From Nitrospirota bacterium (GTDB taxonomy: Bacteria > Nitrospirota > Thermodesulfovibrionia > Thermodesulfovibrionales > UBA1546), in the NCBI GenBank assembly GCA_016208915.1, contig JACQXE010000051.1:619-64618 (forward strand): 64,000 bases of DNA, written 5' to 3'. The notes beneath the pieces were generated by a model that was not told where the DNA came from, ran no database searches, and was given only the letters and a program-made list of their open reading frames with translations. Of this stretch, positions 1,431-23,609 are shown piece after piece; position 1 is the first letter of the stretch, and every line of letters begins with the position of its first letter. The position numbers and the translations under genes are program-made.

Positions 1431-3105
1431 TTAATTTATCGTTATCAACTTAGACTTTGTATTGTTTCCATCATTCATCTCAGGCACTACTCCATCTGCA
1501 TCTGCTGCACAAAAGATATAGTATTTGCCCGGAAGTGTGTCAGATGGAATAAGACAAGTCATACTGCCTGCGTTTGATTCTCCTACTGCAAGTGGGATCA
1601 CTGCCCTAAAGCAACCAAGCGGTTTATCCCAAGGAAACAACTTAGTGTCAACAGACAGATAAAACTTGTTGGTAGATGCCCCTGCATCTCCTGTTCCGTT
1701 ATTTTTTGTTGTATTACCTATTGTGATTGTTGTTCCTGCTTTTGCAGTAGAAGGTGCAGTAAGAGCTGATATTATAAGATCAGCGCCTATCTTAATCGAG
1801 TCGTTCTTTAAGTTATTGATCTCGTTTGTCTCAGCAACTACATTATCAGCATCTGCAATAGCTAAAATATAAAACATATCTGCATCTGTTATGCCGCAAG
1901 GAAGGGTACATTCTGTACTTCCTGTATTCTGAGTGATTGGGCCAAGCGGTGGAATAACTCTGCTGCAAATAAGTTTGTCTTCTGCGCTGTATGTGGCATC
2001 AGTAGAAAAGTAGAACTTTGTTGTTGATGTGCCTGCTGGGCCTGTGCCTTGATTCTTGGTTGTATCAGTAACAGTTATGTTTTGACATGCCGCACCGGTT
2101 AATGGGACTGAGAAAGCAGAGACGATAAGATCAGAGGTTGAGGGCTGGCAATTTGGCTCAGGATTAGGACTAACTGTGTCCCACTTGCCATTGCAGTTAT
2201 TGTCTTTTCCGTCACTGCATATGAAACTACCATATGGCCCCTCTATTACTCCGGGGTTAATTGTAGCATCACTGTCATTACAGTCATTGCCGGGTGTTGT
2301 TTGACATCCAGCCGGCACACAGCCAGCTCCTGTGCACGTTCCGTCTAATGATGCGTTTATGTGTAAGTCGTTGTCTTTGTCACAATAGTAAGTGAACGGA
2401 ACAGCACAGTTAGGGTCTGTATAGAACCACCAAACTGGACTCGAAATATCTCCAGTTGGAGTATGAGCTACGACTCCCCAATAATATGTCTTCCCTGTTT
2501 CCAATGTCGGGAATAGACATAAAGGCGATGATACATTATCACAAATCTTCACAGCTGGATACATTGTAATGTAATCTAAAATATATACGTCATAACCTGT
2601 AGCTCCCGACACAGGATCCCAGCTAAACGAACCGTTCAAATTACACACGCTTGCACCATTTGCAGGAGAAGGGTTATAGACGCCAGGACGTAAGGCGGTG
2701 GGAATCTTGGATAGAGAAATATTGTACGTTCCCGCAGAGTTAACACCAAAATCGCGTATGACTATGGTATAAAGCCCTGTCTGCGCAAGTTGGTGATCGA
2801 GGACGTCACCACCACAGTAATTGCCGTTACCACAGGTCTGCCTCGGCTGGCCCTCCACCTGGTGGATATAGGACTATATGCGTGTCTAAAGCCCCCGAAA
2901 TCGTCACTGCGTTAATGATTACCTGATCACCTACGTTACCCGTAAATGTCCATGTATCCATGTATGAAGGACCAACGAGATCAATACCTATTTTGGTCTC
3001 ACCTGAATTTATCGGTCCCATATCAGCAGCCCAACCTAAAGAAAAACAACTACACACAAAAATCACAACTAACAGCAGAAATAAAAATCTCTTCCCCATA
3101 CCCAA
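1431..3105 (-). pseudogene. Exported PPC-like / Cys-rich metal-binding motif / 2x CARDB protein, frameshifted near 2835
   Basis: Signal-peptide ORF 2827-3105 continues out of frame into ORF 1431-2858; DCND...CSDGKDNNCNG motif; two DLIxSA...E(T/M)NxxNN CARDB-like repeats. Confidence 0.75.
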
Positions 3106-6339: not shown

Positions 6340-7638
6340 CTATGAGCCGTCATCTGTTTTGATATGCGGTGTTATGAATATGAGAAGCTCAGTTTTATCT
6401 TTTCTTTTAGTTTCTTTTTTAAAAAGCCATCCGAGCAGAGGTATTTTGGATAATAAGGGCACGCGGTTTTCCCCTTCAGTATCAGTCTCAGTATAGATAC
6501 CGCCTATAACTATTGTTTCTCCGTTTTTGATAAGAACTCCTGTCTGGGTCTCACGGCTAGTCTTTGGAGGGATGCCTAAAACAGAACGGCTGAAATCAAA
6601 TTCTTCTTTTTTTGTCAGAATCTTCAACGACACCTGTTCAAGATCTATTATCTTAGGTGTAACTGTCAAACGTAAAGAGGCTTCCTTTTCTGTAGTGCCT
6701 GTAACCTGCGAACTGCCTCCTGATATCGTTGTCGTAGGGATTATAATCTGCGTGCCGCTTGAAATTGTTGCCTCCTGGTTATCCAAAACCATTACCTTCG
6801 GGCTGGAGAGTATCTTTGCCTTGCCCTCTGCCTCGAGCGCAGAAAGCTGCAAATCCAATGTCAGCTTGTTAGTTAATAAGCCTATGCCTATTGCTCCGCC
6901 ACTTCCTGCGCCAACTGCCGCAGGAAGATTTACGTTAAATGCATTTCCTGAATAGCCTATTCCGCCGGTTAATGCAATTGCAGCTGTATCGGTTGATGTT
7001 GTCTTTGTGGCGCCTCCAAACACTAATACGTCTCCGGTCCGATACATAGTGCCCCATTGGATGCCTAACTCTTCTCTCGCATTAGTACTGATCTCAACAA
7101 TCTGCGCCTCGATCATTACCTGTTTTGTCTTTATATCTACCTGTTTCAATAGCTGAGCTGCCCTGTCTATTGCTGATGGAGTATCCTTAATGACTATCGT
7201 GCTGCTCCTTATATCTGATGCCACTGTGCCTTTTTTGCTCAAGGCCTTTGTAATTACAGGTTCGAGTTCTTTCGGGTTCGCATATTTGACAGTCATTGTG
7301 CGGGTTATAAGGTCAGCATCATCTTCCAATGGGACTATACTTACAATATTGCTCTCTTTGATGTAAGAATACCCTTTCCCTTTTAATATGGAGTCTATCG
7401 CATCCCAGAGCGGAACATTTCTGAGACTGACAGTCACCTTCCCGGTTAGCTTTTCATCGACAATGATGTTGATACCGTGCTCCTGTCCTATCGCCCTCAT
7501 TACGTCCCGAAGTTCAACATCTCTGAGTTCTATCGAAACAAGCGGACCCTTATCCTCGGCATAAGCAGTAAACAGTGAACAGTTAATAGTAAACAGTAAA
7601 AAAATAATATGTAAAGCATAGCGCCTTTTCATCTTCAT
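6340..7638 (-). CDS. pilQ: Type IV pilus secretin PilQ-like (short, no AMIN domains)
   Basis: QVMIEAQIVE, ILSSPKVMVLDNQEA, GETIVIGG, VPLLSKIPLLGWLFK. Confidence 0.85.
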   Translation of the reverse strand: MKMKRRYALHIIFLLFTINCSLFTAYAEDKGPLVSIELRDVELRDVMRAIGQEHGINIIVDEKLTGKVTVSLRNVPLWDAIDSILKGKGYSYIKESNIVSIVPLEDDADLITRTMTVKYANPKELEPVITKALSKKGTVASDIRSSTIVIKDTPSAIDRAAQLLKQVDIKTKQVMIEAQIVEISTNAREELGIQWGTMYRTGDVLVFGGATKTTSTDTAAIALTGGIGYSGNAFNVNLPAAVGAGSGGAIGIGLLTNKLTLDLQLSALEAEGKAKILSSPKVMVLDNQEATISSGTQIIIPTTTISGGSSQVTGTTEKEASLRLTVTPKIIDLEQVSLKILTKKEEFDFSRSVLGIPPKTSRETQTGVLIKNGETIVIGGIYTETDTEGENRVPLLSKIPLLGWLFKKETKRKDKTELLIFITPHIKTDDGS

Positions 7639-8102
7639 CTTCTCCCCCCCTTCTGTCCGCCTAAGGCGGATTCAATAGCGAATTTCTCTATTCCAAGATA
7701 AAACTTTTTCCCGCTTTTTTCTAAAATGACCCTGTCCTTGTTTATGCCTACTATCATGAAGTCATTGACCTTCTCGTTTTTCCTGTAAAATCCTCCGTTT
7801 ATTATTGCCAATGCCCTTTCTCCGTCAGATATTATACCCTCAACCTTCAGACCTATTGAGACGTCTTCCTTTTGTATTCTTTCCTTTTTCAGCACGCTGT
7901 CTTCATATCTTATGAACGGGTCTCTCCCCCACTTTTCCTTTATTATTTCCTTCACAGGCGACTGCAATGCACTGAGTTTTATATCAGAAAGATTTTCTGC
8001 ATAAGAAAGTGAAAAGTGAAAAGTGAAAAGTGAAAAGATAAAAATCATGGAAAATATTTTTTTTGATCTTTGTAATTTGCAAGTTGCAACTTTTCTCTTC
8101 AT
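7635..8102 (-). CDS. PilP-like accessory protein
   Basis: RDPF motif, GII..G...AIING; position between pilO and pilQ. Confidence 0.55.
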   Translation of the reverse strand: MKRKVATCKLQRSKKIFSMIFIFSLFTFHFSLSYAENLSDIKLSALQSPVKEIIKEKWGRDPFIRYEDSVLKKERIQKEDVSIGLKVEGIISDGERALAIINGGFYRKNEKVNDFMIVGINKDRVILEKSGKKFYLGIEKFAIESALGGQKGGRR

Positions 8103-8659
8103 TGCTTTTTCCTCAGATAGGTCACAACCTTCAAAATGGCTATGCCTGAAGGATACAAGGCGCTGTTGGTCTCGAACTTGAGTTCCCGTATCAGAAACAA
8201 TCTGTGTCTTAATTCAATACTTCTGAGAAAATCATACATCTCCCTGAATCTGACCCTTAACTCTATCTTTACCCTCATGATAATAAAATTATCCTTATAT
8301 TCGAACCCCTCAGGCGCTATGGATATGAAATCCACTCTTGCCATGCTTGCCTCACGGCTTATTGCCGCCAGCAAGCCTGAAAGGTCCTCTGCTTCCGGAA
8401 GTTTCATATCTTCGGCAATTTGATTTTTCTGAAGTGAAACCTGCGAAGACAGGGCAGTGTTTACAACCTCAATATCATTTTTCAGCGTCTGCAGAGTCTG
8501 CTGTTTTAAGTTTGCCTTCTGTGAAGCAGGCTTATACAGCAGAATATAGAAACCGCCTACTACTATAAATACCAGCATTAATACGCTGATAACCCTTTCC
8601 CTTCCTGAAAGGCGGTCTATCCTGCCGGCTATAGTTTTTCTCAAAGACTTTAGGTCCAT
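8099..8659 (-). CDS. pilO: PilO-like protein
   Basis: LSGRER + TM, KLPEAEDLSGLL; synteny. Confidence 0.7.
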   Translation of the reverse strand: MDLKSLRKTIAGRIDRLSGRERVISVLMLVFIVVGGFYILLYKPASQKANLKQQTLQTLKNDIEVVNTALSSQVSLQKNQIAEDMKLPEAEDLSGLLAAISREASMARVDFISIAPEGFEYKDNFIIMRVKIELRVRFREMYDFLRSIELRHRLFLIRELKFETNSALYPSGIAILKVVTYLRKKQ

Positions 8660-9186
8660 TTCAGTTTTGTCTTTAGTTCAAAGGAGATTTCCTTTTCTCC
8701 CTTTTGAGAAAATACGATTTCGACGTCGTAGAAGTACTGCGACGCCTCAAGCGCAGATATGAGATTCGCCACGCCAAGCTGTGTAGTTGTGAAGCCCTTT
8801 ACGCTCATCAGCTTTATCCCTCTCTCATCTTTTGATTCGATGGAAGAGAGCCACACATTTTCAGGCACAAGAATTGATATCTCACTTATGATAAAGCTCC
8901 ATCTGGGTGTTTTTCCTATAGCATCAAGTATCTCTCTGTCGACTGATGAGATGGTCTGGACAGGCGCAGATGCAACCAGTAATTTTTGCTGTAAATCTGT
9001 TTTATGTTTGTTTAGCTTGTCCAGTTCGATATCAACCTTTCTGATCTCAATGCCCTTAAAAAACCAGAGAACAATTATTGTTATGATATAAACTGCAAGC
9101 CCCGGGAAAATGTAATAAAACAGGCCCTTTATTTTAGGCTCGCCTGTTTTAACCTCTATTGGCAGAAGATTCAGCGTTTCCTTCAA
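8650..9186 (-). CDS. pilN: PilN-like protein
   Basis: LNLLP N-terminal motif, VPENVWLSSI. Confidence 0.8.
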   Translation of the reverse strand: MKETLNLLPIEVKTGEPKIKGLFYYIFPGLAVYIITIIVLWFFKGIEIRKVDIELDKLNKHKTDLQQKLLVASAPVQTISSVDREILDAIGKTPRWSFIISEISILVPENVWLSSIESKDERGIKLMSVKGFTTTQLGVANLISALEASQYFYDVEIVFSQKGEKEISFELKTKLKWT

Positions 9187-10136
9187 GAACCCCTCCTCGC
9201 AAGACCTATTGCCACAGAGAACATTGAACCTAACTTTCTTATTTTCTCATCTTTAAGAACAAGGCCGTTAAAAGGATTAGGTGCGCTGACCGGAACATCG
9301 AATACGCCTGAGAAATATTCCCTTATTGCAGAACTGACGGCAACCCCTCCTGTCAGAATCACCGCTTCAAATGTCTTTTCTTTAAATGTGGCTTTATAAT
9401 AATCTATGGACCTGAATATCTCTTTCAGTATCTGATTCAATATGTCTCGCATCTTTTCCGCAGGTCCGTTCATCAGTATGTTATCTGCCTCTTCTTCTGA
9501 AAAACCCTCATTAAGAAGATGGTTCTTCAGATGTTCTCCTCCCATATCTACGGATCTGGTCAGCCTCAAAGCCCCTGCCTTGACTATATCTATCTCCATC
9601 ACCTTTGCGCCTATGTCTAAGATTATTACATTTCCGGGACTGTTTAGAGGGATCGCCCTGATCAAACACAAAGGGTTTATGTCAACAGATGTTATACGGA
9701 GACCGGATTCCTTTAAAGGAAAGATATGGCGATTAATATTTTCTCTTTCTGTAGAAGCGAATGTTACTATGATGCCGTCAGCCCCTTGCTTTGCAACATA
9801 ATCATAGACTGCATTCTCGGCAGAATAAGGCAACTGTCTTTTTATCTCCCATCTTACAGCTTCCTTTAATTCGCTCTTCGGCATGAGGGGCAGGGTTATG
9901 GTTCTTATAAAAGAAAAACTGCTGGGTATCTGTACTGAAGCCTCTTTGCCGATAATATTCAGTTCTTTGAAAAAATTGTGCAGGCTGTTTATGAAAAGTG
10001 TATCGTCTTCCCTCTCAGAGGAAGAAATATTCATGGAGGCGGCAATGGAAACTTTATTTGTTCTGAGTCCTATGACCTTTATAGAACCACTGCCAAGATC
10101 TACCCCTAAGGGAGCAGGTCGAAACAGTTTTACCAT
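9183..10136 (-). CDS. pilM: PilM-like actin-fold protein
   Basis: GVDLGSGSIK, ILDIGA, ILTGGVA, VAIGLA. Confidence 0.8.
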   Translation of the reverse strand: MVKLFRPAPLGVDLGSGSIKVIGLRTNKVSIAASMNISSSEREDDTLFINSLHNFFKELNIIGKEASVQIPSSFSFIRTITLPLMPKSELKEAVRWEIKRQLPYSAENAVYDYVAKQGADGIIVTFASTERENINRHIFPLKESGLRITSVDINPLCLIRAIPLNSPGNVIILDIGAKVMEIDIVKAGALRLTRSVDMGGEHLKNHLLNEGFSEEEADNILMNGPAEKMRDILNQILKEIFRSIDYYKATFKEKTFEAVILTGGVAVSSAIREYFSGVFDVPVSAPNPFNGLVLKDEKIRKLGSMFSVAIGLARRGS

Positions 10137-15328: not shown

Positions 15329-15364
15329 AAAGGGCATGTATAAAACATGCCCTTTTTGTTTTTA
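15329..15364 (+). terminator. Terminator-like hairpin in conserved leader (copy B)
   Basis: AAAGGGCATGT..ACATGCCCTTT followed by TTGTTTTT. Confidence 0.6.
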
Positions 15365-15444
15365 TAAAGAGTAAGATGAAATAAGAGAAAATAATTTTCT
15401 CTTATTGAGATTTAAAAAAGGAAGGAATTATAAAGGAGAGTAAT

Positions 15445-18400
15445 ATGAAGCTGCTAAAAATGAATTCTTCAAGAAAGTTAATGGTTATATTTTTTATCTT
15501 CTTTATTTTTGGATTCGCACGAAATGGTTTTTCAACGTTATCTGATAATGCAGGTGGGCAGCCTTCTGTAAGACCCTTAGATTTAACGAAATATCCGACA
15601 TCAGAAGAAATCACGGCGGCCGGTCAGCTTGGAGGCCCTATCTATCCCACTCATGAAATACAGGATAAGAGCAGAAGAGAGGTGATAAATCTTTCTTTTG
15701 GTAAAGCCATACAGGAATGGAACAGGCATGAATATGTGACGGCTGTCCAATTGTTCCAGGAACATATCCAGGAATTTCCAGACAGTCCGTGGGTATCTGA
15801 AGCAATCCTCCATATAGGCTGTGATGCCCATTACAATGGAAGATACAATGAGGCAGAAGAAAGCTTCAAATGGATAATAGAGGAGAATAAAGACAAAGAT
15901 TACGATGGCGCCAGAAGACTGCTGAACAAAGCGAGGCTGCGGCTCGGCGTATTGAGTGTCGAACAATACAAGTTTAGTGAAGCAAAAGAGCTGTTCCATG
16001 AACTTAAAAGAGAAGGTTCTGATTGGCGCGAACGCACCTATGCGGCTCACTGGATACAGCGCCTTTCCAGATATTCGGCCAATGAGCTTGCCATGCTTAA
16101 TTGCGGGACAAAGGCTCTTGCGTATTTATTAGAAAAAGAGGGGAAAAAGGATGAGGCGCGTAAGGTGATGGAACAGTTGCCTGAAACCAGCCAGGGCCAC
16201 AGCATGAAGGCCCTTTCCGATATCGCTTCCAGATACGGATATAGCATGGCTGTCCTCAGGGTTACGCTGAAGGAACTGAAAAAACTGCCCCTGCCCGCAA
16301 TTGTTCACTTGGGCGCGAAAACGCCGGGAAGGGGCGGACACTACTGGATTTTGGAGAAGATTAAGGAAGACTCCGTTGAATTACATGATCCGCAATCAGG
16401 CCGCAGGTTCGGGCAGAGCCTCAAAGCATTCGCAAAGGAATGGAGCAGCCGTGCACTCGTATTTTCAGACAAAAAAGACCTTCCCGGCATAAAGCTGACT
16501 GAAGGTGATATGAAACAGTTCTATGGCGGATGCTGCGGAGTCCCAGCTCCGGAAGATGGCAATGGAGATCCGGGCCGCAACGGAGGGCCAGACCCTAAAG
16601 GAGATTGTCCAGGCCCCTATGGTTCTCCGGGCTGGTCTGTGAATATCATCAACTTGAATCTCTATGTACACGATATTCCATTATGGTATAGGAGCACTTT
16701 AGGCCCCTCAGTAGAGATTTCACTGAGCTACAATTCCCAATCGGCTATAGCCTATAACGAACCCTTCGGTAATAAGTGGCAGTTCAATTACGGCAGTTAT
16801 CTCGTTGTTGATACCTCAGGGAATGTGACTGTATTCATGCCGGACGGCAGACGTGATGAGTATACAAAGAATTATTCAGGGGATTACAATCATCCCTATC
16901 AAGTATTCAATACGCTCACCAAGATTGGTGAAAATCATTATGAATTGAAATTCCATAATGATACAGTTTATGTATATAACATTCCTTCGGGAACGAGTTC
17001 TCTCCAGCCTTTTCTTGTTGAGATACGCGACCGTCAAGGGCAAAAGCTCACCTTTAATTATGATACGAATGTCCGATTAACGACGATTAACGATGCACTC
17101 GGAAGGACAACTAACCTTACATATAATGCGCAAGGACTTGTAACACAGGTTACAGATCCCTTCAGCCGTTCCGCTGCATTTGAATATGACGCCGATAGGA
17201 ATCTTACGAAAATTACTGATATGGGCGGATATTGGTCAACAATCAGCTACGATGCGGACGTTTACATCACGAGCATAGAGAACCAGAAGGGAAAGTGGTT
17301 ATTTTATATCGAGCCGGCTGACGGGATTCCAAACGGCTCAAATGATTACCCGCCGCCGGGTGGAACTATGTGGCAGGATTACCGTATTACGATCACGAAT
17401 CCGTTAAACGATAAGGAAGAGTACCATTACACCGGCAATCTCGTGTATGCCTGGTATGTGTCTCCCAAACATTATGTTCCATATGCGAGCAGTTCTGTTA
17501 ACAACTTCAGAAGCGCTTTTAAAACCGTCTTTCACAGTACTGTCATATCCGGACGCGGTGAGATCGGCACAATCCAGGACCCTGAAGGAGTTACTGTTAC
17601 TTTCGGCTATGACCCTAACGGCAACAGAACGAGCATCAAGGATGCGAATGGCAACACAACATCGATTGCATATGACACACAGGGCAATATTACGAGCATT
17701 ACAGATCCGCTCAGCAATCTGGTTCAGTTGAATTACGACAGCAACAATAATCTCACCAGCCTGATCGATCCGGCAGGAAATATTTATGCCTATACCTATG
17801 ATCCTGGCAACAATATCGATTTAACAAAGATTACTGATCCAAAAAGCGGCGAGACAACCTTTACCTATTATTCCTATGGCAAGCTAAAGACACTGACAGA
17901 CGCAAAGGGGCAGACAACCTCGTTCGAATATGATAGCCAATGGAATCTTACGAAAGTGATAAGCCCCGGCGGGACTGACATTTATGCCTATGATGCTGTG
18001 GGAAGGGTTGAATCTCATACCGACCCGAAAAGCAATACCCTCCATTACACCTATGACAATTTAAATCGTCTATTGCACATCACATATCCCGACAGCTTCA
18101 TAAAAGAATACGCTTATGACTGCTGCGGGTTTGACAGCGTTACGGACAGAAACGGGACAGTCACATTCTCACATGATGATATGCACAGAATCTCCAGTGT
18201 CACTGACGTATACGGCAACCTGATATCCTATGCCTATGATAAAAACAGCAACCTTTTCACTCTTACCTATCCCGATAGCAAGCAAGTCGTTTATGCATAT
18301 GACAACGCGGACCGCTTGATCAATGTTACAGACTGGCTGAATAATGTGACATCTTACGTATATGATTCTGTCGGTGCGCTTGTCGGCACAATATTGCCCG

Positions 18401-19518
18401 ATAATTCCATCACAATGTATGAATATGATAAGGCACAGAGGCTTACATCGTTTCTGGATTTCGCAAGTGATGCGAGCGTGAACGCTGTCTTCAAATATAC
18501 GCTCGATAAGCTGGGGAACAGGACAGCTATCAACTTCTATCAGCCGCTCAACATGGTTTCGCCTTTGCAGAATACCAGCTATACATACAACAGCGACAAT
18601 AGATTGCTCACAGCCGGAAGCACATCCTATAGTTATGACAATAACGGGAATCTGATAACTAAGACACAGGGAGGCAATGTTACAAACTATTCATGGGACT
18701 TCAACAACATGCTTGCTCAGGTTACAGTTGGTGGAAACACCTATGGATACAAATATGACGGCCTTGGGAACAGGATTGCAAAAACAGTGAATTCTGTTGA
18801 GACAAGATATGCAGTTGATCCAAAAGGTGGATTGTCAAAGGTTCTGGCAGAAACGACAGCAACCGGAAGCATCACTTCTTATTATGTCTACGGACTTGGT
18901 CTTATCTCAAAAATAACCCCTTCCGGGCAGGCATATTACTATCATTATGATGGTATAGGCAGTACCATTGCTATAACCGATTCATTAGGAAACACAGTCA
19001 ACAAATATGCCTACGATGCATTCGGAAAAGTCATAAGCCAGACAGAAACAATCCCAAATCCATTTAAATATGTCGGAAGGTTTGGCGTGATGGATGACGG
19101 GAATGGATTGCTCTATATGCGGGCAAGATATTATGACCCTGAGGTTGGGAGGTTTATAAATAAAGATCCTGTCAGGTTTATAGACGGATCGAATACTTAT
19201 GTTTATGTGGAAAACAATCCAATAAGATTTATCGATCCTCTTGGAAACGACCTATTAGATGTCTCTCTTTCATGTGTGGCGGCAACTCTTGGAACGTTCT
19301 TCCCAGAGGTTGGTGCGGCGGCGGCGATTCCGTTAGCAGGATTGGCATGTGCGATTTCAACAGATGCGGCTTCAATTGGACTAACTTTGGGCGGTATCTT
19401 AAATCCGGTGGTTGGATGGGCCAGCTGTGTTTACGAAATAAGTAGAATACTTAAAGAATTGAGAGACGAGCAGCGAAGGATAAATATAGAAACCTATGGG
19501 TTGGAATACTATCATTAG
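15445..19518 (+). CDS. Rhs/YD-repeat protein with signal/TM, TPR-like region, C39 peptidase domain and hydrophobic C-terminal extension
   Basis: NCGTKAL..GHY..HDP; YD repeats; Rhs core YMRARYYDPEVGRFINKDP...YVENNPIRFIDPLG. Confidence 0.88.
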   Translation: MKLLKMNSSRKLMVIFFIFFIFGFARNGFSTLSDNAGGQPSVRPLDLTKYPTSEEITAAGQLGGPIYPTHEIQDKSRREVINLSFGKAIQEWNRHEYVTAVQLFQEHIQEFPDSPWVSEAILHIGCDAHYNGRYNEAEESFKWIIEENKDKDYDGARRLLNKARLRLGVLSVEQYKFSEAKELFHELKREGSDWRERTYAAHWIQRLSRYSANELAMLNCGTKALAYLLEKEGKKDEARKVMEQLPETSQGHSMKALSDIASRYGYSMAVLRVTLKELKKLPLPAIVHLGAKTPGRGGHYWILEKIKEDSVELHDPQSGRRFGQSLKAFAKEWSSRALVFSDKKDLPGIKLTEGDMKQFYGGCCGVPAPEDGNGDPGRNGGPDPKGDCPGPYGSPGWSVNIINLNLYVHDIPLWYRSTLGPSVEISLSYNSQSAIAYNEPFGNKWQFNYGSYLVVDTSGNVTVFMPDGRRDEYTKNYSGDYNHPYQVFNTLTKIGENHYELKFHNDTVYVYNIPSGTSSLQPFLVEIRDRQGQKLTFNYDTNVRLTTINDALGRTTNLTYNAQGLVTQVTDPFSRSAAFEYDADRNLTKITDMGGYWSTISYDADVYITSIENQKGKWLFYIEPADGIPNGSNDYPPPGGTMWQDYRITITNPLNDKEEYHYTGNLVYAWYVSPKHYVPYASSSVNNFRSAFKTVFHSTVISGRGEIGTIQDPEGVTVTFGYDPNGNRTSIKDANGNTTSIAYDTQGNITSITDPLSNLVQLNYDSNNNLTSLIDPAGNIYAYTYDPGNNIDLTKITDPKSGETTFTYYSYGKLKTLTDAKGQTTSFEYDSQWNLTKVISPGGTDIYAYDAVGRVESHTDPKSNTLHYTYDNLNRLLHITYPDSFIKEYAYDCCGFDSVTDRNGTVTFSHDDMHRISSVTDVYGNLISYAYDKNSNLFTLTYPDSKQVVYAYDNADRLINVTDWLNNVTSYVYDSVGALVGTILPDNSITMYEYDKAQRLTSFLDFASDASVNAVFKYTLDKLGNRTAINFYQPLNMVSPLQNTSYTYNSDNRLLTAGSTSYSYDNNGNLITKTQGGNVTNYSWDFNNMLAQVTVGGNTYGYKYDGLGNRIAKTVNSVETRYAVDPKGGLSKVLAETTATGSITSYYVYGLGLISKITPSGQAYYYHYDGIGSTIAITDSLGNTVNKYAYDAFGKVISQTETIPNPFKYVGRFGVMDDGNGLLYMRARYYDPEVGRFINKDPVRFIDGSNTYVYVENNPIRFIDPLGNDLLDVSLSCVAATLGTFFPEVGAAAAIPLAGLACAISTDAASIGLTLGGILNPVVGWASCVYEISRILKELRDEQRRINIETYGLEYYH

Positions 19519-19605: not shown

Positions 19606-22010
19606 ATGATAATAAAATCTAAATTGCAGTTTTTTATTCTTTTCATTTTCATAGGGGTGATGGCCTTGTTGAACTCCAACGCCTTTGCCGCAACGCCGAT
19701 TGACTGCGGGCAGACTACTCCAGGTTCTATTAGTGTGATAGGGGAAAAAGATGATTATACATTCACTGCAAATCCAAATGATGGCGCCCTTATCACGGTT
19801 GTCAGGACATCGGGAGACATGAACCCTTACATAGAGCTTTATGACTCAGCCGGTACGAAGATTGCGGAGTATAATTCCTATTCCGGCAATTTCGCCTTAA
19901 TCAACAAGGGCACCTATACTGTGGTTGTTTACGATTACGGCAACAACGGCACCGGCACCTATAACATCAGATACCAGAACTTGACTACTGCCTGCAATGA
20001 AACAGCCATAACCTGCGGTCAAAGCACCCCTGGCTCTATAAGTCCAACAGGTGAGATAGACTTCTATAGCTTTACCACAACGACTGCGGGTAATAAGGCG
20101 AGCATCAGGCTCTCTGCCACCTCAGGCACAGCAGACCCTTATCTGAAGTTATACAATTCAGCAGGCACAGAGGTCACCCCTTCCTTCAATATTTATACCC
20201 TTACGTCGGCAGGCGCCTATACCATCATGGTTTATGACGACGGTCATGACGAGACGGGCGGATACAGCCTTACTTATCTGAACCTGACCACGGCCTGCAA
20301 TGCAACAACCGTATTGATCCGTCTATGGAGCTTTACGATAGCTCTGGTGCAAGGATTGCATATCAATACTCTTCATCGGGAGGTTCGGCCACGATAACCC
20401 AAACCCTATCTGCAGCAGGCACTTATTTGATAATTGCTTCGGACTACGGCAATAACGAGACCGGCAACTATTCACTGAAAATACAGAAGAACGGCAACTC
20501 TTGTCCTGAAGTTATTGTAGCTTCGCCAAATGGCGGTGAGATAGTTGAGGCTGGCACCACGTTTCCGATTACATGGACATCTACAAGTCCAAGCGGTATT
20601 ACCTCTCAGGAAATCAGATTATCAACTGATGGAGGCGCCACATTTCCGACTGTGCTTGCTGCCGGATTGGCAGGCAGTGTTCAGTCTTATACCTGGCCTA
20701 TTTCCTCGGGGTTGAAGACTGTACAGGGGCGCATTCGGATTACAGTGACGGATACTTCGGGGGCGACTGTCTATGATGACAGTGACAACGATTTCATAAT
20801 ACTGCAAAATGTCCCCAAAGTCTCACGCACATACGAATATGATGAACTCAATCGGCTGACAAAAATAACTAATGAGGACTCCTCAACTATCACCTATAAA
20901 TATGATGCTGTGGGTAATAGAACGGCCCTCACATTCAAAAAGACAAACTTAGACCTCATAATCACAGCAGTGACAGGGCCAACAACAGCAGTGCCGGGTT
21001 CAACCATCACAGTAGGTGACACAACAAAGAATCAGGGAGCAGACACAGCAGGAGCTTCAAAAACAAAATACTACTGGTCAACAAACAACACATACAGTGC
21101 GGATGATCTATACCTTGGAGAGAGGTCAGTTCCACCACTTGCGCCCGGAGCATCAAACACAGGAACAATATCAGTAACAGTTCCAGATACCTGTACAGAT
21201 GGCAAGGTAGCCTTCTACATCATAGCAAGGGCAGATGCAGACAATGTAAACCCTGAGACCAATGAGAATAACAATAACAAGGCAAAATCAATGAAGATGG
21301 GGCCAGACCTTATAGTATCAGCTATTACAGCTCCAACAACGAGCGGAGCAGGAAAAACCATAACAGTGAATGATACAACAAAGAATAATGGTGGATGCCC
21401 GACAACTATTGATACAACAACAAAGTTCTATCTTTCAAGCAATTCAACATGGGATGCTGGAGATACATATCTTGCAGAAAGGCCAGTGCCAGTACTTCCT
21501 CCAAGTGGTACAGACACAGCTACCACGCCTGTTACCATTCCAGCAGGCACAGCAACAGGAACATGGTACATAATTGCAAAGACAGATGCGACTGGAGCAG
21601 TATTAGAGACAAGCGAAACAAACAACACCAAGAACAAATCAATTAAGATAGGCCCTGATTTCATAGTATCATCAATCACTGCTCCAACAAGTGCAGCACG
21701 AGGCGCGACAATCACAATAGGAGACACAACAAAGAACAGTGGCGGAGGAAGCACAGTGGTCACTTCAACAACAAAACTCTATCTGTCGATTAACACAACA
21801 TACGATGCAGGAGATAAACTTCTTGTCAGCAGGACAGTGCCTGTTCTTGATGCAAATGGCACAAGTACAGTAAGCGGGTCTGTAGTGATACCGACAGATG
21901 GTTGTACAAACTCATGCTACATCATAGCTATATCAGATGCGAATGGAGAAGTTACTGAGACTAATGAGACAAACAATACAAAGTATAAGGCGATAACGAT
22001 AAATCCGTAA
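19606..22010 (+). pseudogene. Exported PPC-like repeats / Ig-like / single YD unit / 3x CARDB protein, frameshifted near 20310
   Basis: ORF 19606-20397 (signal peptide, repeated CGQ..PGSI..D.Y.F modules) continues out of frame as IDPSMELYDSSG in ORF 20325-22010. Confidence 0.75.
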
Positions 22011-22027: not shown

Positions 22028-22056
22028 AGGGATGCCGTTAAAAGAACGGCATCCCT
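22028..22056. terminator. Intrinsic terminator-like hairpin
   Basis: AGGGATGCCGTT..AACGGCATCCCT. Confidence 0.7.
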
Positions 22057-22291: not shown

Positions 22292-22531
22292 TTAAGCGCT
22301 CTTTTTATGTTGTGAGGCATATAAATCTATTAGCCGCCGAATCATTTTTTGATATGAAGTATGATACCGTTGAGCTTCTCTTTTGAAAAACTCAATGCTC
22401 GATTTGTTCAGTGCAATAGTTACCTTTACATTTTCTTCTTTCAAGACCAATTGTTCCGGCGGCGGAAGAAAGTCTTTAATTACTTTCAGCTTGCCCATTG
22501 GCTCATCAGTATATTTTATTTTGCTCTTCAT
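22292..22531 (-). CDS. BrnA/CopG-like antitoxin
   Basis: DFLPPPEQL..KVTIAL..YQKMIR; overlaps BrnT; probable start MKSKIKY. Confidence 0.8.
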   Translation of the reverse strand: MKSKIKYTDEPMGKLKVIKDFLPPPEQLVLKEENVKVTIALNKSSIEFFKREAQRYHTSYQKMIRRLIDLYASQHKKSA

Positions 22532-22793
22532 ATATCTTCCTCCCTTTTCTCCAATATCCGGCACCATAGATGCGGATGATATTTTCTCTATATGTAAATC
22601 TGACAGTCATAATGCCGTCACCAACACGACCAATACAGTAAAACCGTTCTTCTTCTGAACTGTGAGTGATATCTTTAACTACGACGCGATGAGGATCGAG
22701 AAAAGCATGTTGTGCCAATGCAAACGAAACATTGTGCTTAGCTTGATTATCCCTGTCTTTCTCCTCATCCCATTCAAAGATGGTTTTCTTCAT
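22506..22793 (-). CDS. BrnT family toxin
   Basis: FEWDEEK..N..KH.VSF, HS..EER, VRFTYR..IRI. Confidence 0.88.
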   Translation of the reverse strand: MKKTIFEWDEEKDRDNQAKHNVSFALAQHAFLDPHRVVVKDITHSSEEERFYCIGRVGDGIMTVRFTYRENIIRIYGAGYWRKGRKIYEEQNKIY

Positions 22794-23000: not shown

Positions 23001-23312
23001 TTAACTGGCTTTCTTCATCTCTTTGCAGTATTTTATATGCCTCAGAATATCTTTCTTTTTCTCCTTCACCCTGTAAAGATCATACTGGTTCTGAAGGTTC
23101 AGCCAGAGTTCCTCTGATGTGCCGAAAAATCTTGAAAGCCTTATAGCCATTTCCGGCGTGACGCCTCTTTTCGCATTAAGTATCTCATTTACAGTTCTGA
23201 AAGTGGTCTTAAGTTTTTTTGCCAATTCTGTTTGAGAAATGCCAAGAGGCAAGATGAAATCCTCTTTTAGTATCTGCCCCGGATGTGTTGGTGTTCTCTT
23301 TAAATCAAGCAT
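23001..23312 (-). CDS. higA: HigA family antitoxin
   Basis: PTHPGQILKEDF, VTPEMAIRLSRFFGTS..WLNLQ. Confidence 0.9.
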   Translation of the reverse strand: MLDLKRTPTHPGQILKEDFILPLGISQTELAKKLKTTFRTVNEILNAKRGVTPEMAIRLSRFFGTSEELWLNLQNQYDLYRVKEKKKDILRHIKYCKEMKKAS

Positions 23313-23327
23313 GGATGCCTCCTCCTT

Positions 23328-23609
23328 TTAATGATAGTCTGTAATTTCTACTTCATAAGCATCAGAATCGATAAATCTGAAAATAATCCTGTACTGGTCA
23401 TTAATCCTGATGCTGTGTTTCCCTTTTAAATCACCTTTTAAAGCCTCAAGCCTGTTACCCGGTGGAGCATTCAGGTCTTCAAGTCGTATCGCTGCATTCA
23501 AATAATCCAGTTTCCTTGATCCTGCTTTGCAGACGGAGACGGAAAATTTTGCGCTCTTTCCTGTAAGATATAGTCTCTCAGTTTCTTTGTCTGCAAAGGA
23601 CTTAATCAT
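23328..23609 (-). CDS. higB: HigB/RelE family toxin
   Basis: MIKSFADKETE, PPGNRLEALKG, SIRINDQYRI, EITDYH. Confidence 0.9.
   Translation of the reverse strand: MIKSFADKETERLYLTGKSAKFSVSVCKAGSRKLDYLNAAIRLEDLNAPPGNRLEALKGDLKGKHSIRINDQYRIIFRFIDSDAYEVEITDYH

Follow-up and report, generated by a model that had tools for sequence, protein, structure and literature searches.

How might a Rhs protein that appears to leave the cytoplasm by the Sec pathway part its toxin cage from the N-terminal module that precedes it? The question is raised by a gene on the plus strand of a 64,000-nucleotide stretch of DNA from a Nitrospirota bacterium (assembly GCA_016208915.1, contig JACQXE010000051.1, positions 619 to 64,618), the whole of which is referred to here as the window. 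The product of this gene combines a signal peptide, a region resembling tetratricopeptide repeats (TPRs), a peptidase domain of the C39 family and a shell of Rhs/YD repeats, and between the peptidase and the shell lies a segment that resembles the double-glycine leaders of C39 substrates. The best reading is that of a Sec-exported Rhs polymorphic toxin carrying its own maturation protease, and the recognition sequence of that protease, in one chain.

A C39 peptidase with a built-in leader-like segment

The open reading frame (ORF; 15445..19518) is intact and encodes 1357 amino acids followed by a stop codon. A preliminary description of the window, made from its letters, had listed a signal or transmembrane segment, a TPR-like region, a C39 domain with its triad, a GG/CC sequence, YD repeats and a Rhs core ending in DPLG, and all of these are found again by profiles and in the sequence. 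The coordinates given there are right throughout: Cys220 is encoded at 16102-16104, His299 at 16339-16341, Asp315 at 16387-16389 and Gly361-Gly362 at 16525-16530, with Cys363-Cys364 directly after them (16531-16536).

The peptidase is recognised by Pfam as Peptidase_C39 (PF03412; residues 219-344, E 2.1e-18, 66.9 bits against a cut-off of 22). When protein sequences of the PDB are searched with phmmer, the region matches ComA and PCAT1 only, and the alignment with the ComA peptidase domain pairs Cys220, His299 and Asp315 with its Cys, His and Asp. Comparison of folds with Foldseek points the same way. PCAT1 is matched at E 1e-6, LahT150 with its leader superposes with a root-mean-square deviation (rmsd) of 2.0 A over 124 columns, and the ComA peptidase domain (PEP) reaches a TMt of 0.76. 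These three proteins occupy ranks 1-14, whereas C39 domains of the toxin type (9l5u, 8ssm, 8ssk) stand at ranks 17 and 29-32; non-catalytic C39-like domains (3zua, 3b79, HlyB) are also among the matches, behind PCAT1, LahT150 and ComA. The transmembrane and ATPase domains of an ATP-binding cassette (ABC) exporter are absent from the protein by Pfam and NCBIfam, and the bacteriocin_ABC models of NCBIfam match the peptidase part only (27.5 bits against a cut-off of 524).

Conservation was followed in two sets of relatives. Of 120 close relatives aligned over their first 560 amino acids, 112-113 cover the region of the C39 domain and the GG site; in the other 7-8, an additional N-terminal domain shifts the region past residue 560, and the full-length alignment shows the motif there too. 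A wider set of 266 proteins, extending down to about 30% identity, was aligned to a hidden Markov model (HMM) of the module, and 218 of the 265 matching proteins cover every key column; the counts below refer to these 218 unless another number is given. Cys220 is present in all of them, His299 in 214 and Asp315 in 206, with Asn, the papain-type alternative, in a further eight. Such conservation of Cys220 and His299, as judged from alignments, argues for catalysis under selection. In one clade, the change of Asp315 to Asn is accompanied by Tyr or Phe in place of Cys364.

Substrates of C39 enzymes follow a rule: GG (or GA/GS) at positions -2/-1, hydrophobic residues at -4, -7 and -12, and an acidic residue at -8; mutation of these residues abolishes cleavage (PMC6363468). 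The rule is fitted by residues 351-362, with L351, D355, M356, F359, G361 and G362. The segment starts seven residues past the C39 domain, and is not the N-terminal extension of a small exported peptide, being internal to a chain of 1357 residues. Its features are widely kept. Position -12 is Leu in 175 relatives, Met in 15 and Ile in 11; -8 is Glu in 157 and Asp in 16; -7 is Met in 109 and Leu in 46; and -4 is Ile, Val, Leu or Phe in 140. G361 is found in 217/218 and G362 in 200/218, the remainder having Ala (8), Thr (5), Ser (3) or Gln (2); Ala or Ser, residues that C39 enzymes accept, thus account for 11. The residues beyond the site are also conserved: C363 in 214, C364 in 206 and G365 in 205. 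The preliminary description had tied its proposal to the conservation of motif and triad among homologues that join C39 to Rhs. Both hold up in almost all relatives that span this region, and a lack of conservation of the glycine pair, which was to speak against the proposal, is not what the alignment shows.

Segments of this kind are rare. The relaxed pattern L-x3-[ED]-[LM]-x2-[ILVFM]-x-G-G occurs three times in the 1,032,636 residues of the open frames of at least 100 amino acids in the genome (2.9e-6 per residue), and one of the three is the site described here; GGCC is found in no other Rhs protein of the genome. A reading of Y-G-G-C as a lipobox was rejected, as the sequence, 330 residues past the signal peptide, lacks a Leu at -3.

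Two AlphaFold2 (AF2) models cover the region. In the first (residues 31-470, with 48 relatives; mean predicted local distance difference test score, pLDDT, of 75.7), block means lie between 68 and 98 for residues 41-360, the leader-like segment scores 89-90, and values fall below 50 from about residue 366. In the second, limited to the C39 domain and the segment (residues 205-372; mean pLDDT 86.3, predicted template modelling score, pTM, of 0.84), residues 345-354 score 95 and residues 355-364 score 82, followed by a drop to 44. DSSP assigns a helix to residues 353-356 (-10 to -7) and an extended stretch to residues 360-361 (P3-P2). The order ends right at the two cysteines in both models. The leader-like segment is thus predicted to dock on its own C39 domain in the conformation known for genuine leaders, and a matching geometry has been described for LahT150 with its leader (PMC6363468). 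The docking model called for in the preliminary description was borne out as to the ordered segment, its short helix and its extended P3-P2 residues, while docking itself is addressed indirectly, by pLDDT and DSSP. When the C39 domain (205-343) and residues 344-403 were modelled as separate chains, the score of the complex was 0.36 against 0.44 for the control; this gives no verdict and is counted neither way.

Proposed self-cleavage and the alternatives to it

It is fairly probable that the protein is exported by Sec, cuts itself with its C39 domain after Gly362, and also undergoes the C-terminal self-cleavage usual for Rhs proteins. The signal peptide would carry it across the inner membrane. 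Outside the cytoplasm, the TPR-like and C39 domains would fold together, and the 12 residues after the C39 domain would, according to the models, occupy its substrate groove; a short helix would present the hydrophobic residues of -12, -7 and -4, and Y-G-G would reach into the active site in extended form. Cys220, His299 and Asp315 would then cut after Gly362, most simply in cis, parting the TPR-C39 module from a Rhs cage that begins with Cys-Cys. At the other end, membership of the Rhs family suggests that the core would free the hydrophobic tail of 90 residues inside the cage at PxxxxDPLG, in the way of other Rhs and Tc proteins.

Several observations weigh against this scheme. Self-cleavage is read from conservation and models, and the contact between Cys220 and Gly362 from pLDDT and DSSP; a proximity of Cys126 to Cys364 is likewise putative. 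The Gln six residues before the catalytic Cys, a proposed oxyanion residue of ComA-type enzymes, is not kept: it is replaced by Glu214, and across 113 relatives this position holds E (35), K (32), R (19), Q (15) or G (8). The proposed role of that Gln has itself been questioned by the LahT150 structure (PMC6363468). At the cleavage site, G362 is replaced by Thr or Gln in 7/218 relatives, and the near-invariant CC demands a function beyond simple cleavage, since ordinary C39 substrates need no Cys at P1' or P2'. A thiol protease outside the cytoplasm may also be oxidised. By analogy, StbD-CT, a C39 toxin that cuts itself in cis after Gly157-Gly158 in dependence on Cys183 and both glycines, does so only under reducing conditions, and this cut is required for intoxication (bioRxiv 10.64898/2026.05.07.723447). 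At the C-terminal end, the residue after DPLG is Asn1268 and not the Leu, Trp or Phe of the consensus (PMC8765631); the preliminary description was right that the Rhs core ends in DPLG, but the residue that usually follows is missing, and the C-terminal cut is not certain here. Among 116 relatives with the strict motif, the next residue is Leu in 82 and Asn in four. Finally, a periplasmic Rhs protein would still have to cross the outer membrane, and no obvious immunity gene is seen downstream, where small ORFs were not exhaustively examined.

The cysteines deserve separate consideration. The conserved ones are Cys126 in the TPR-like domain, the CC pair 363/364 and one linker Cys; an insertion adds two that co-vary, and the shell has an internal CC of its own. 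This pattern speaks for a place of the protein outside the cytoplasm. Cys126 is kept in 201/218 relatives. Cys126 and Cys364 are both present in 201, both absent in 12, and Cys364 stands alone in five and Cys126 in none (raw Fisher p = 3.5e-16). On a FastTree phylogeny of the 218 sequences, these losses reduce to five changes for C126, three for C364 and four for C363, and an independent-pairs sign test is not significant. The number of linker cysteines, including the CC pair, is odd in 125/157 relatives, so that the total with Cys126 is even, and three proteins without Cys126 and Cys364 have exactly two linker cysteines. As a lead only, this suggests disulfides between Cys126 and Cys364 and between Cys363 and a linker Cys; a TPR-less relative that retains the CC pair (P0253) speaks against the former. 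The internal pair, Cys893-Cys894 (18121-18126, in Y-x-Y-x-C-C), is found in 105/109 aligned relatives, and both residues are lost together in three. A link between the N-terminal CC and this shell pair was discarded: P0039, P0042 and P0075 lose the shell pair only, and the reverse is seen in P0046, P0048 and P0052.

One may speculate that disulfides of Cys126, the CC pair and the linker Cys set up the cut or hold its products together, so that release is coupled to the redox state. In a fuller version of this idea, which is doubtful though worth bearing in mind, Cys364-Cys126 and Cys363-linker bonds would form in the periplasm, the C39 domain would cut after G362 or be held ready to do so, and the cage would stay covalently attached to the TPR-C39 handle; a thiol or a reducing setting, for example at or inside a target cell, would later break the bond and free the Cys-Cys N-terminus. 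If true, a bacteriocin leader-peptidase pair and a redox switch would be united within one Sec-dependent Rhs toxin, and a T6SS-independent delivery route (T6SS, type VI secretion system) would be present in at least 150 sequence clusters from Nitrospirota, Desulfobacterota, anammox Planctomycetota, Thiomargarita, cable bacteria and others.

Would the segment need to be cut at all? It could be a pseudo-substrate latch that silences the C39 domain and stays uncleaved, the real substrate lying elsewhere, such as a GG protein of a target cell, and the TPR-C39 module being itself the payload or the enzyme that processes another protein. Toxic C39 domains are indeed found in polymorphic systems, namely Tox-PL-C39 (PMC3482391) as well as StbD-CT and Cpe1, which cleave GyrB/ParE; Cpe1-type and StbD structures (9l5u, 8ssm, 8ssk) are among the Foldseek matches, and for a site that is simply cut, an invariant CC at P1'/P2' would be unusual. 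A latch is nevertheless rather unlikely. Both fold and sequence are nearer to PCAT1, LahT150 and ComA than to the toxin type, with ComA and PCAT1 the only matches by sequence, and the whole leader rule (-12, -8, -7, -4 and GG) is kept, as a true substrate needs. Moreover, the module is N-terminal, where polymorphic toxins carry their trafficking or processing parts, and the variable toxin tail is C-terminal; StbD-CT itself cuts its own GG.

Loss of Cys126 together with Cys364, the odd number of linker cysteines that becomes even with Cys126, and the two linker cysteines of the three proteins lacking both could also be expected if G-G-C-C-G were a structural turn, with disulfides or a metal site stapling the TPR-C39 part to the shell. 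The likeness to a leader would then be a by-product. The C39 domain would either be silenced by oxidising surroundings or serve for binding, in the manner of the C39-like domains of RTX exporters; C39-like domains without catalysis do exist (3zua, 3b79, HlyB). This is improbable: the catalytic Cys is gone from the C39-like domains known to act in binding, whereas Cys220 and His299 are kept here almost without exception, and a disulfide turn leaves the conservation at -12, -8, -7 and -4 unexplained. The association of Cys126 with Cys364 amounts to 3-5 independent changes and is not significant when relatedness is allowed for, and the TPR-less P0253 keeps its CC. There is, lastly, very little to be said for a cut in trans by a stand-alone C39 peptidase of the genome or by a PCAT exporter, with some other task for the fused domain. 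Two further C39 genes do occur in the genome (C64:22052-22513 and C61:15369-15932, the latter 6.4 kb from another Rhs gene). However, in all the family members examined, the GG/CC site goes with a fused, intact C39 domain, while C39 and GGCC are both missing from the genome's other two full-length Rhs proteins. It is the fused domain on which AF2 places the segment, and a protein with a Sec signal peptide is not what a PCAT facing the cytoplasm would be expected to export.

The Rhs cage, its relatives and the genomic setting

The features of the gene are collected in Table 1. The Rhs gene's own transcript begins downstream of the terminator-like hairpin that precedes it. The signal peptide would be cleaved at G-F-S/T, as placed by the -3/-1 rule. 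It is followed by a near-invariant glycine motif, A-A-G-Q-L-G-G (residues 58-64; 15616-15636), which is preceded by a short helix; in this region, G60 is kept in 237/237 family members, G63 in 224/236, G64 in 220/238, L66 in 233/239 and P68 in 229/240. The motif was tried as a second C39 site and rejected, its hydrophobic and acidic residues being misplaced for the -4/-7/-8/-12 rule. The TPR-like domain gives weak TPR matches at residues 88-190 (Pfam) and similarity to YbgF/BamD/PorW-like TPRs below the cut-off (NCBIfam); Foldseek finds it similar to the TPR domain of YbgF (2xev, E 8e-4), and its helices are modelled by AF2 with pLDDT 83-98.

Table 1. Features in and around the Rhs gene, with positions in the window.
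Feature	Position	Strand	Remarks
Terminator-like hairpin	15329..15355	+	11-pair stem, then a T run; closes the upstream unit
Shine-Dalgarno sequence GGAG	15435..15438	+	Read directly; 6 nt before ATG 15445
Whole gene	15445..19518	+	Signal peptide, TPR, C39, GG/CC site, Rhs shell, C-terminal tail
Sec-type signal peptide, residues 1-30	15445..15534	+	K/R-rich start; 12-residue hydrophobic core, mean Kyte-Doolittle 3.1
N-terminal strand/helix, residues 41-70, conserved	15565..15654	+	Includes A-A-G-Q-L-G-G; AF2 pLDDT 83-90
TPR-like all-helical domain, about residues 75-212	15667..16080	+	Holds Cys126 (15820-15822)
Peptidase C39 domain, residues 219-344	16099..16476	+	Pfam, sequence, fold and triad conservation
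Built-in double-glycine leader-like segment, residues 351-362	16495..16530	+	L(-12), D(-8), M(-7), F(-4), Y(-3), G361(-2), G362(-1)
Cys363-Cys364, predicted new N-terminus (P1', P2')	16531..16536	+	C363 214/218, C364 206/218
Pro/Gly/Asp-rich linker, residues 365-396	16537..16632	+	One further Cys (C388); disordered in AF2, pLDDT <50
Rhs/YD-repeat shell, residues 397-1267	16633..19245	+	DUF6531, 14 RHS repeats, Cys893-Cys894, Rhs-associated core
DUF6531, residues 423-472	16711-16860	+	Pfam
Rhs-associated core, residues 1190-1267	19012-19245	+	Ends P1259-xxxx-D1264-P-L-G1267 (DPLG 19234-19245)
C-terminal tail, residues 1268-1357 (90 residues)	19246..19515	+	Polymorphic cargo

The shell is recognised as RHS_repeat by Pfam (E 1e-71, 14 stretches) and as YD_repeat_2x by NCBIfam (11 stretches), and its end as Rhs_assc_core (TIGR03696, residues 1190-1267, 81.7 bits against a cut-off of 32.5). 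The two Asp of the autoprotease are Asp1264, in the motif that ends the core, and Asp1241, 23 residues upstream of it. The tail that follows consists of about 55 hydrophobic, Ala/Gly-rich residues (hydropathy 1.0-1.6 over 1268-1320) and then a charged helix, and has no Pfam family. It is probably a small membrane-active toxin, although this is a guess; matches of the tail to GRDA, colicin and Gly-zipper proteins in the ESM Atlas were set aside as unreliable, with a recognition of 1779, too low to be of use. Among the 30 closest relatives, no tail is related to another in sequence, and the median tail is about 133 amino acids over 131 proteins, as delimited by a regular expression that misplaces a few.

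A search with residues 1-420 gave 236 matches at E <= 1e-3 among the candidates scored, and all 120 matches listed carry both PF03412 and PF05593. An exhaustive HMMER search of 1.84 billion cluster representatives found 1108 at E <= 1e-3, 289 at <= 1e-10 and 150 at <= 1e-30. Named sources are Nitrospirae/Thermodesulfovibrionales, Desulfobacterales, Syntrophobacteraceae, Syntrophales, Candidatus Electrothrix, Candidatus Scalindua, Kiritimatiellales and metagenome-assembled genomes (MAGs) of Poribacteria, and relatives on genome contigs also come from Brocadiaceae, Thiomargarita nelsonii and Thiotrichaceae. The database names of family members are generic only, either 'RHS repeat-associated' or 'C39 domain-containing'. 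All new representatives of at least 600 amino acids match the Rhs core of the protein studied (P0001), except P0132, P0177 and P0259, the last of which retains DUF6531. The module is portable: P0132 has TPR-C39-GGCCG on a non-Rhs cargo with CarboxypepD_reg and thrombospondin type 3 (TSP_3) repeats. Other variants are P0253, which lacks the TPR and retains CC, and seven relatives (P0004, P0006, P0008, P0013, P0016, P0022 and P0025) with a glycoside-hydrolase-like domain (PF02836) between the signal peptide and the TPR.

The gene is rare within its own phylum. At E <= 1e-20, it is found in two of 301 sampled genomes, its own included, and in none of the five other genomes of the same taxonomic family. 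The GC content is 0.465 inside the Rhs gene (16001-18000) and 0.39-0.42 in the flanks. The offset fits either horizontal acquisition or a composition specific to Rhs genes, and together with the rarity it fits a mobile polymorphic toxin gene. A sporadic gene, adjoining toxin-antitoxin pairs and tails that vary among relatives are as expected of a toxin of inter-bacterial competition.

Sec export, which the preliminary description had proposed, agrees with the features of the signal peptide, and 155/202 family members with complete N-termini have a Sec-like start by a crude rule of hydrophobicity and charge. The same description had noted no T6SS gene nearby, and no match to VipB/TssC, of the T6SS sheath, or to PAAR is present in the genome, which is 98.76% complete. 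Its remark that no ABC exporter is nearby is also upheld, with none within 10507-30508. The genome encodes two other full-length Rhs proteins (1902 and 1442 amino acids), both with signal peptides and without C39 or GGCC. The stand-alone C39 genes mentioned above lie on the plus (C64) and minus (C61) strands; the C61 product has a lipoprotein-like start (L-S-G-C), and the Rhs gene near it, C61:3222-8930, encodes the Sec-type protein of 1902 amino acids.

The neighbours in the window are housekeeping genes: cytochrome c assembly, argG, dprA, topA, hisF and a secretin-PilMNO cluster. With a single protein as the query, no more than nine close loci were reached. In an ORF-by-ORF BLAST of the window against six related loci (L004-L008 and L010), a single neighbour is shared, namely a homologue of the 19606-20397 product, which also lies downstream of the Rhs gene in L004 (Brocadiaceae). 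This next gene encodes a secreted PPC/CARDB protein, atypical for an immunity protein. Its two overlapping ORFs, 19606-20397 and 20325-22010 (+), are apparently one secreted protein broken by a frameshift, with a signal peptide, PPC-like repeats across the break, an Ig-like domain, one YD repeat pair and three CARDB domains. No terminator-like site lies between the Rhs gene and the 19606 ORF, and a strong one is found at 22028-22056; 19606-22010 is possibly co-transcribed with the Rhs gene. Two type II toxin-antitoxin pairs adjoin, BrnT/BrnA at 22292-22793 (-; BrnT E 5.5e-21) and HigB (E 6e-20) with a helix-turn-helix (HTH) antitoxin at 23001-23609 (-), and such pairs are typical of a variable genomic region. 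Five kb upstream, 6340-10136 (-) encodes a secretin (PF00263, E 3e-49) with PilO/T2SS-M, PilN and PilM; these genes probably form a type IV pilus module, which related loci do not share next to their Rhs gene. A CARDB protein with a MopE-type metal-binding motif is encoded at 1431-2858 (-), and CARDB proteins are thus found on both flanks.

Relation to known systems

Rhs cages are among the most widespread toxin containers of bacteria. The T6SS Rhs effectors, such as RhsA of P. protegens, TseI, Tse5 and Rhs1, share with the protein described here a YD cage, an N-terminal plug region of the DUF6531 type, the PxxxxDPxG motif of C-terminal aspartyl self-cleavage and a polymorphic tail, and they also have an N-terminal cleavage that parts a delivery module from the cage. 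That cut depends on two Glu in TseI, and its mechanism in RhsA is stated to be unknown (PMC8765631). No dedicated protease domain serves it, and the N-termini are PAAR, prePAAR or VgrG adaptors, in contrast to the signal peptide and the absence of VipB and PAAR matches seen here. The present family gives the N-terminal cut an obvious candidate enzyme (Cys220) and site (G361-G362), and could reveal whether Rhs proteins in general must be released at the N-terminus to be active. Among its carriers are uncultured anaerobes of ecological importance and sulfur bacteria that are giant or filamentous.

A resemblance in export is found in the Sec-dependent teneurin-like/YD proteins of bacteria (PMC13018210), which have a YD shell, a Sec signal peptide, small polymorphic C-termini, some of them membrane-damaging, and a patchy distribution. 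The main text of that paper contains neither 'C39' nor a GG/CC site, and peptidases appear in it only as types of C-terminal domain. The catalogue of C39 domains in polymorphic toxins lists them only as toxins at the C-terminus (PMC3482391), while here the domain is N-terminal and conserved across the family and it is the C-terminus that varies. No description of an N-terminal C39 domain with a built-in double-glycine site on a Rhs protein was found in the literature, subscription papers and supplements being outside the search. Rhs proteins, C39 peptidases and GG self-cleavage are each known already; what appears to be new, on the evidence of sequences and models, is a Rhs polymorphic toxin whose N-terminal processing would be carried out by a C39 domain of the PCAT type on an internal leader.

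The AMS/PCAT exporters, represented by ComA PEP, PCAT1 and LahT150, provide the same C39 fold and triad and the same kind of substrate segment. Unlike in these exporters, the C39 domain is not fused to an ABC transporter and stands behind a Sec signal peptide, which would place it outside the cytoplasm. One chain holds both enzyme and leader, the leader being C-terminal to the enzyme and internal to a protein of 1357 amino acids; the cargo is a Rhs cage of about 1000 amino acids and not a peptide, P1' and P2' are an invariant Cys-Cys, and the putative oxyanion Gln is not kept. The pairing of bacteriocin leader and C39 peptidase would thereby be extended from small peptides on ABC exporters to a Sec substrate of 150 kDa.

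A parallel in mechanism is offered by StbD-CT (CdiA-like) and Cpe1 (T6SS), in which a C39 domain lies within a polymorphic toxin with Gly-Gly in the adjacent linker. They are described as cut in cis under redox control, releasing one part from another; Cpe1 shares the GG site, and its self-processing has been inferred (bioRxiv 10.64898/2026.05.07.723447). The statement of the preliminary description that no characterised example exists therefore stands for an N-terminal C39 domain on a Rhs protein, but not for self-processing in cis at GG, which has been shown for StbD-CT in a polymorphic toxin. In StbD-CT and Cpe1, the C39 domain is the C-terminal toxin and the GG lies upstream of it, whereas here the domain is N-terminal, the GG lies downstream and a separate toxin tail is found at the C-terminus. 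Their carriers are CdiA and PAAR proteins rather than a Sec-dependent Rhs protein, and their C39 domains are structurally farther from the present one than those of the PCAT type. Taken together with the StbD-CT result, the family suggests that redox-coupled, GG-directed self-cleavage is a recurring control element in polymorphic toxins.

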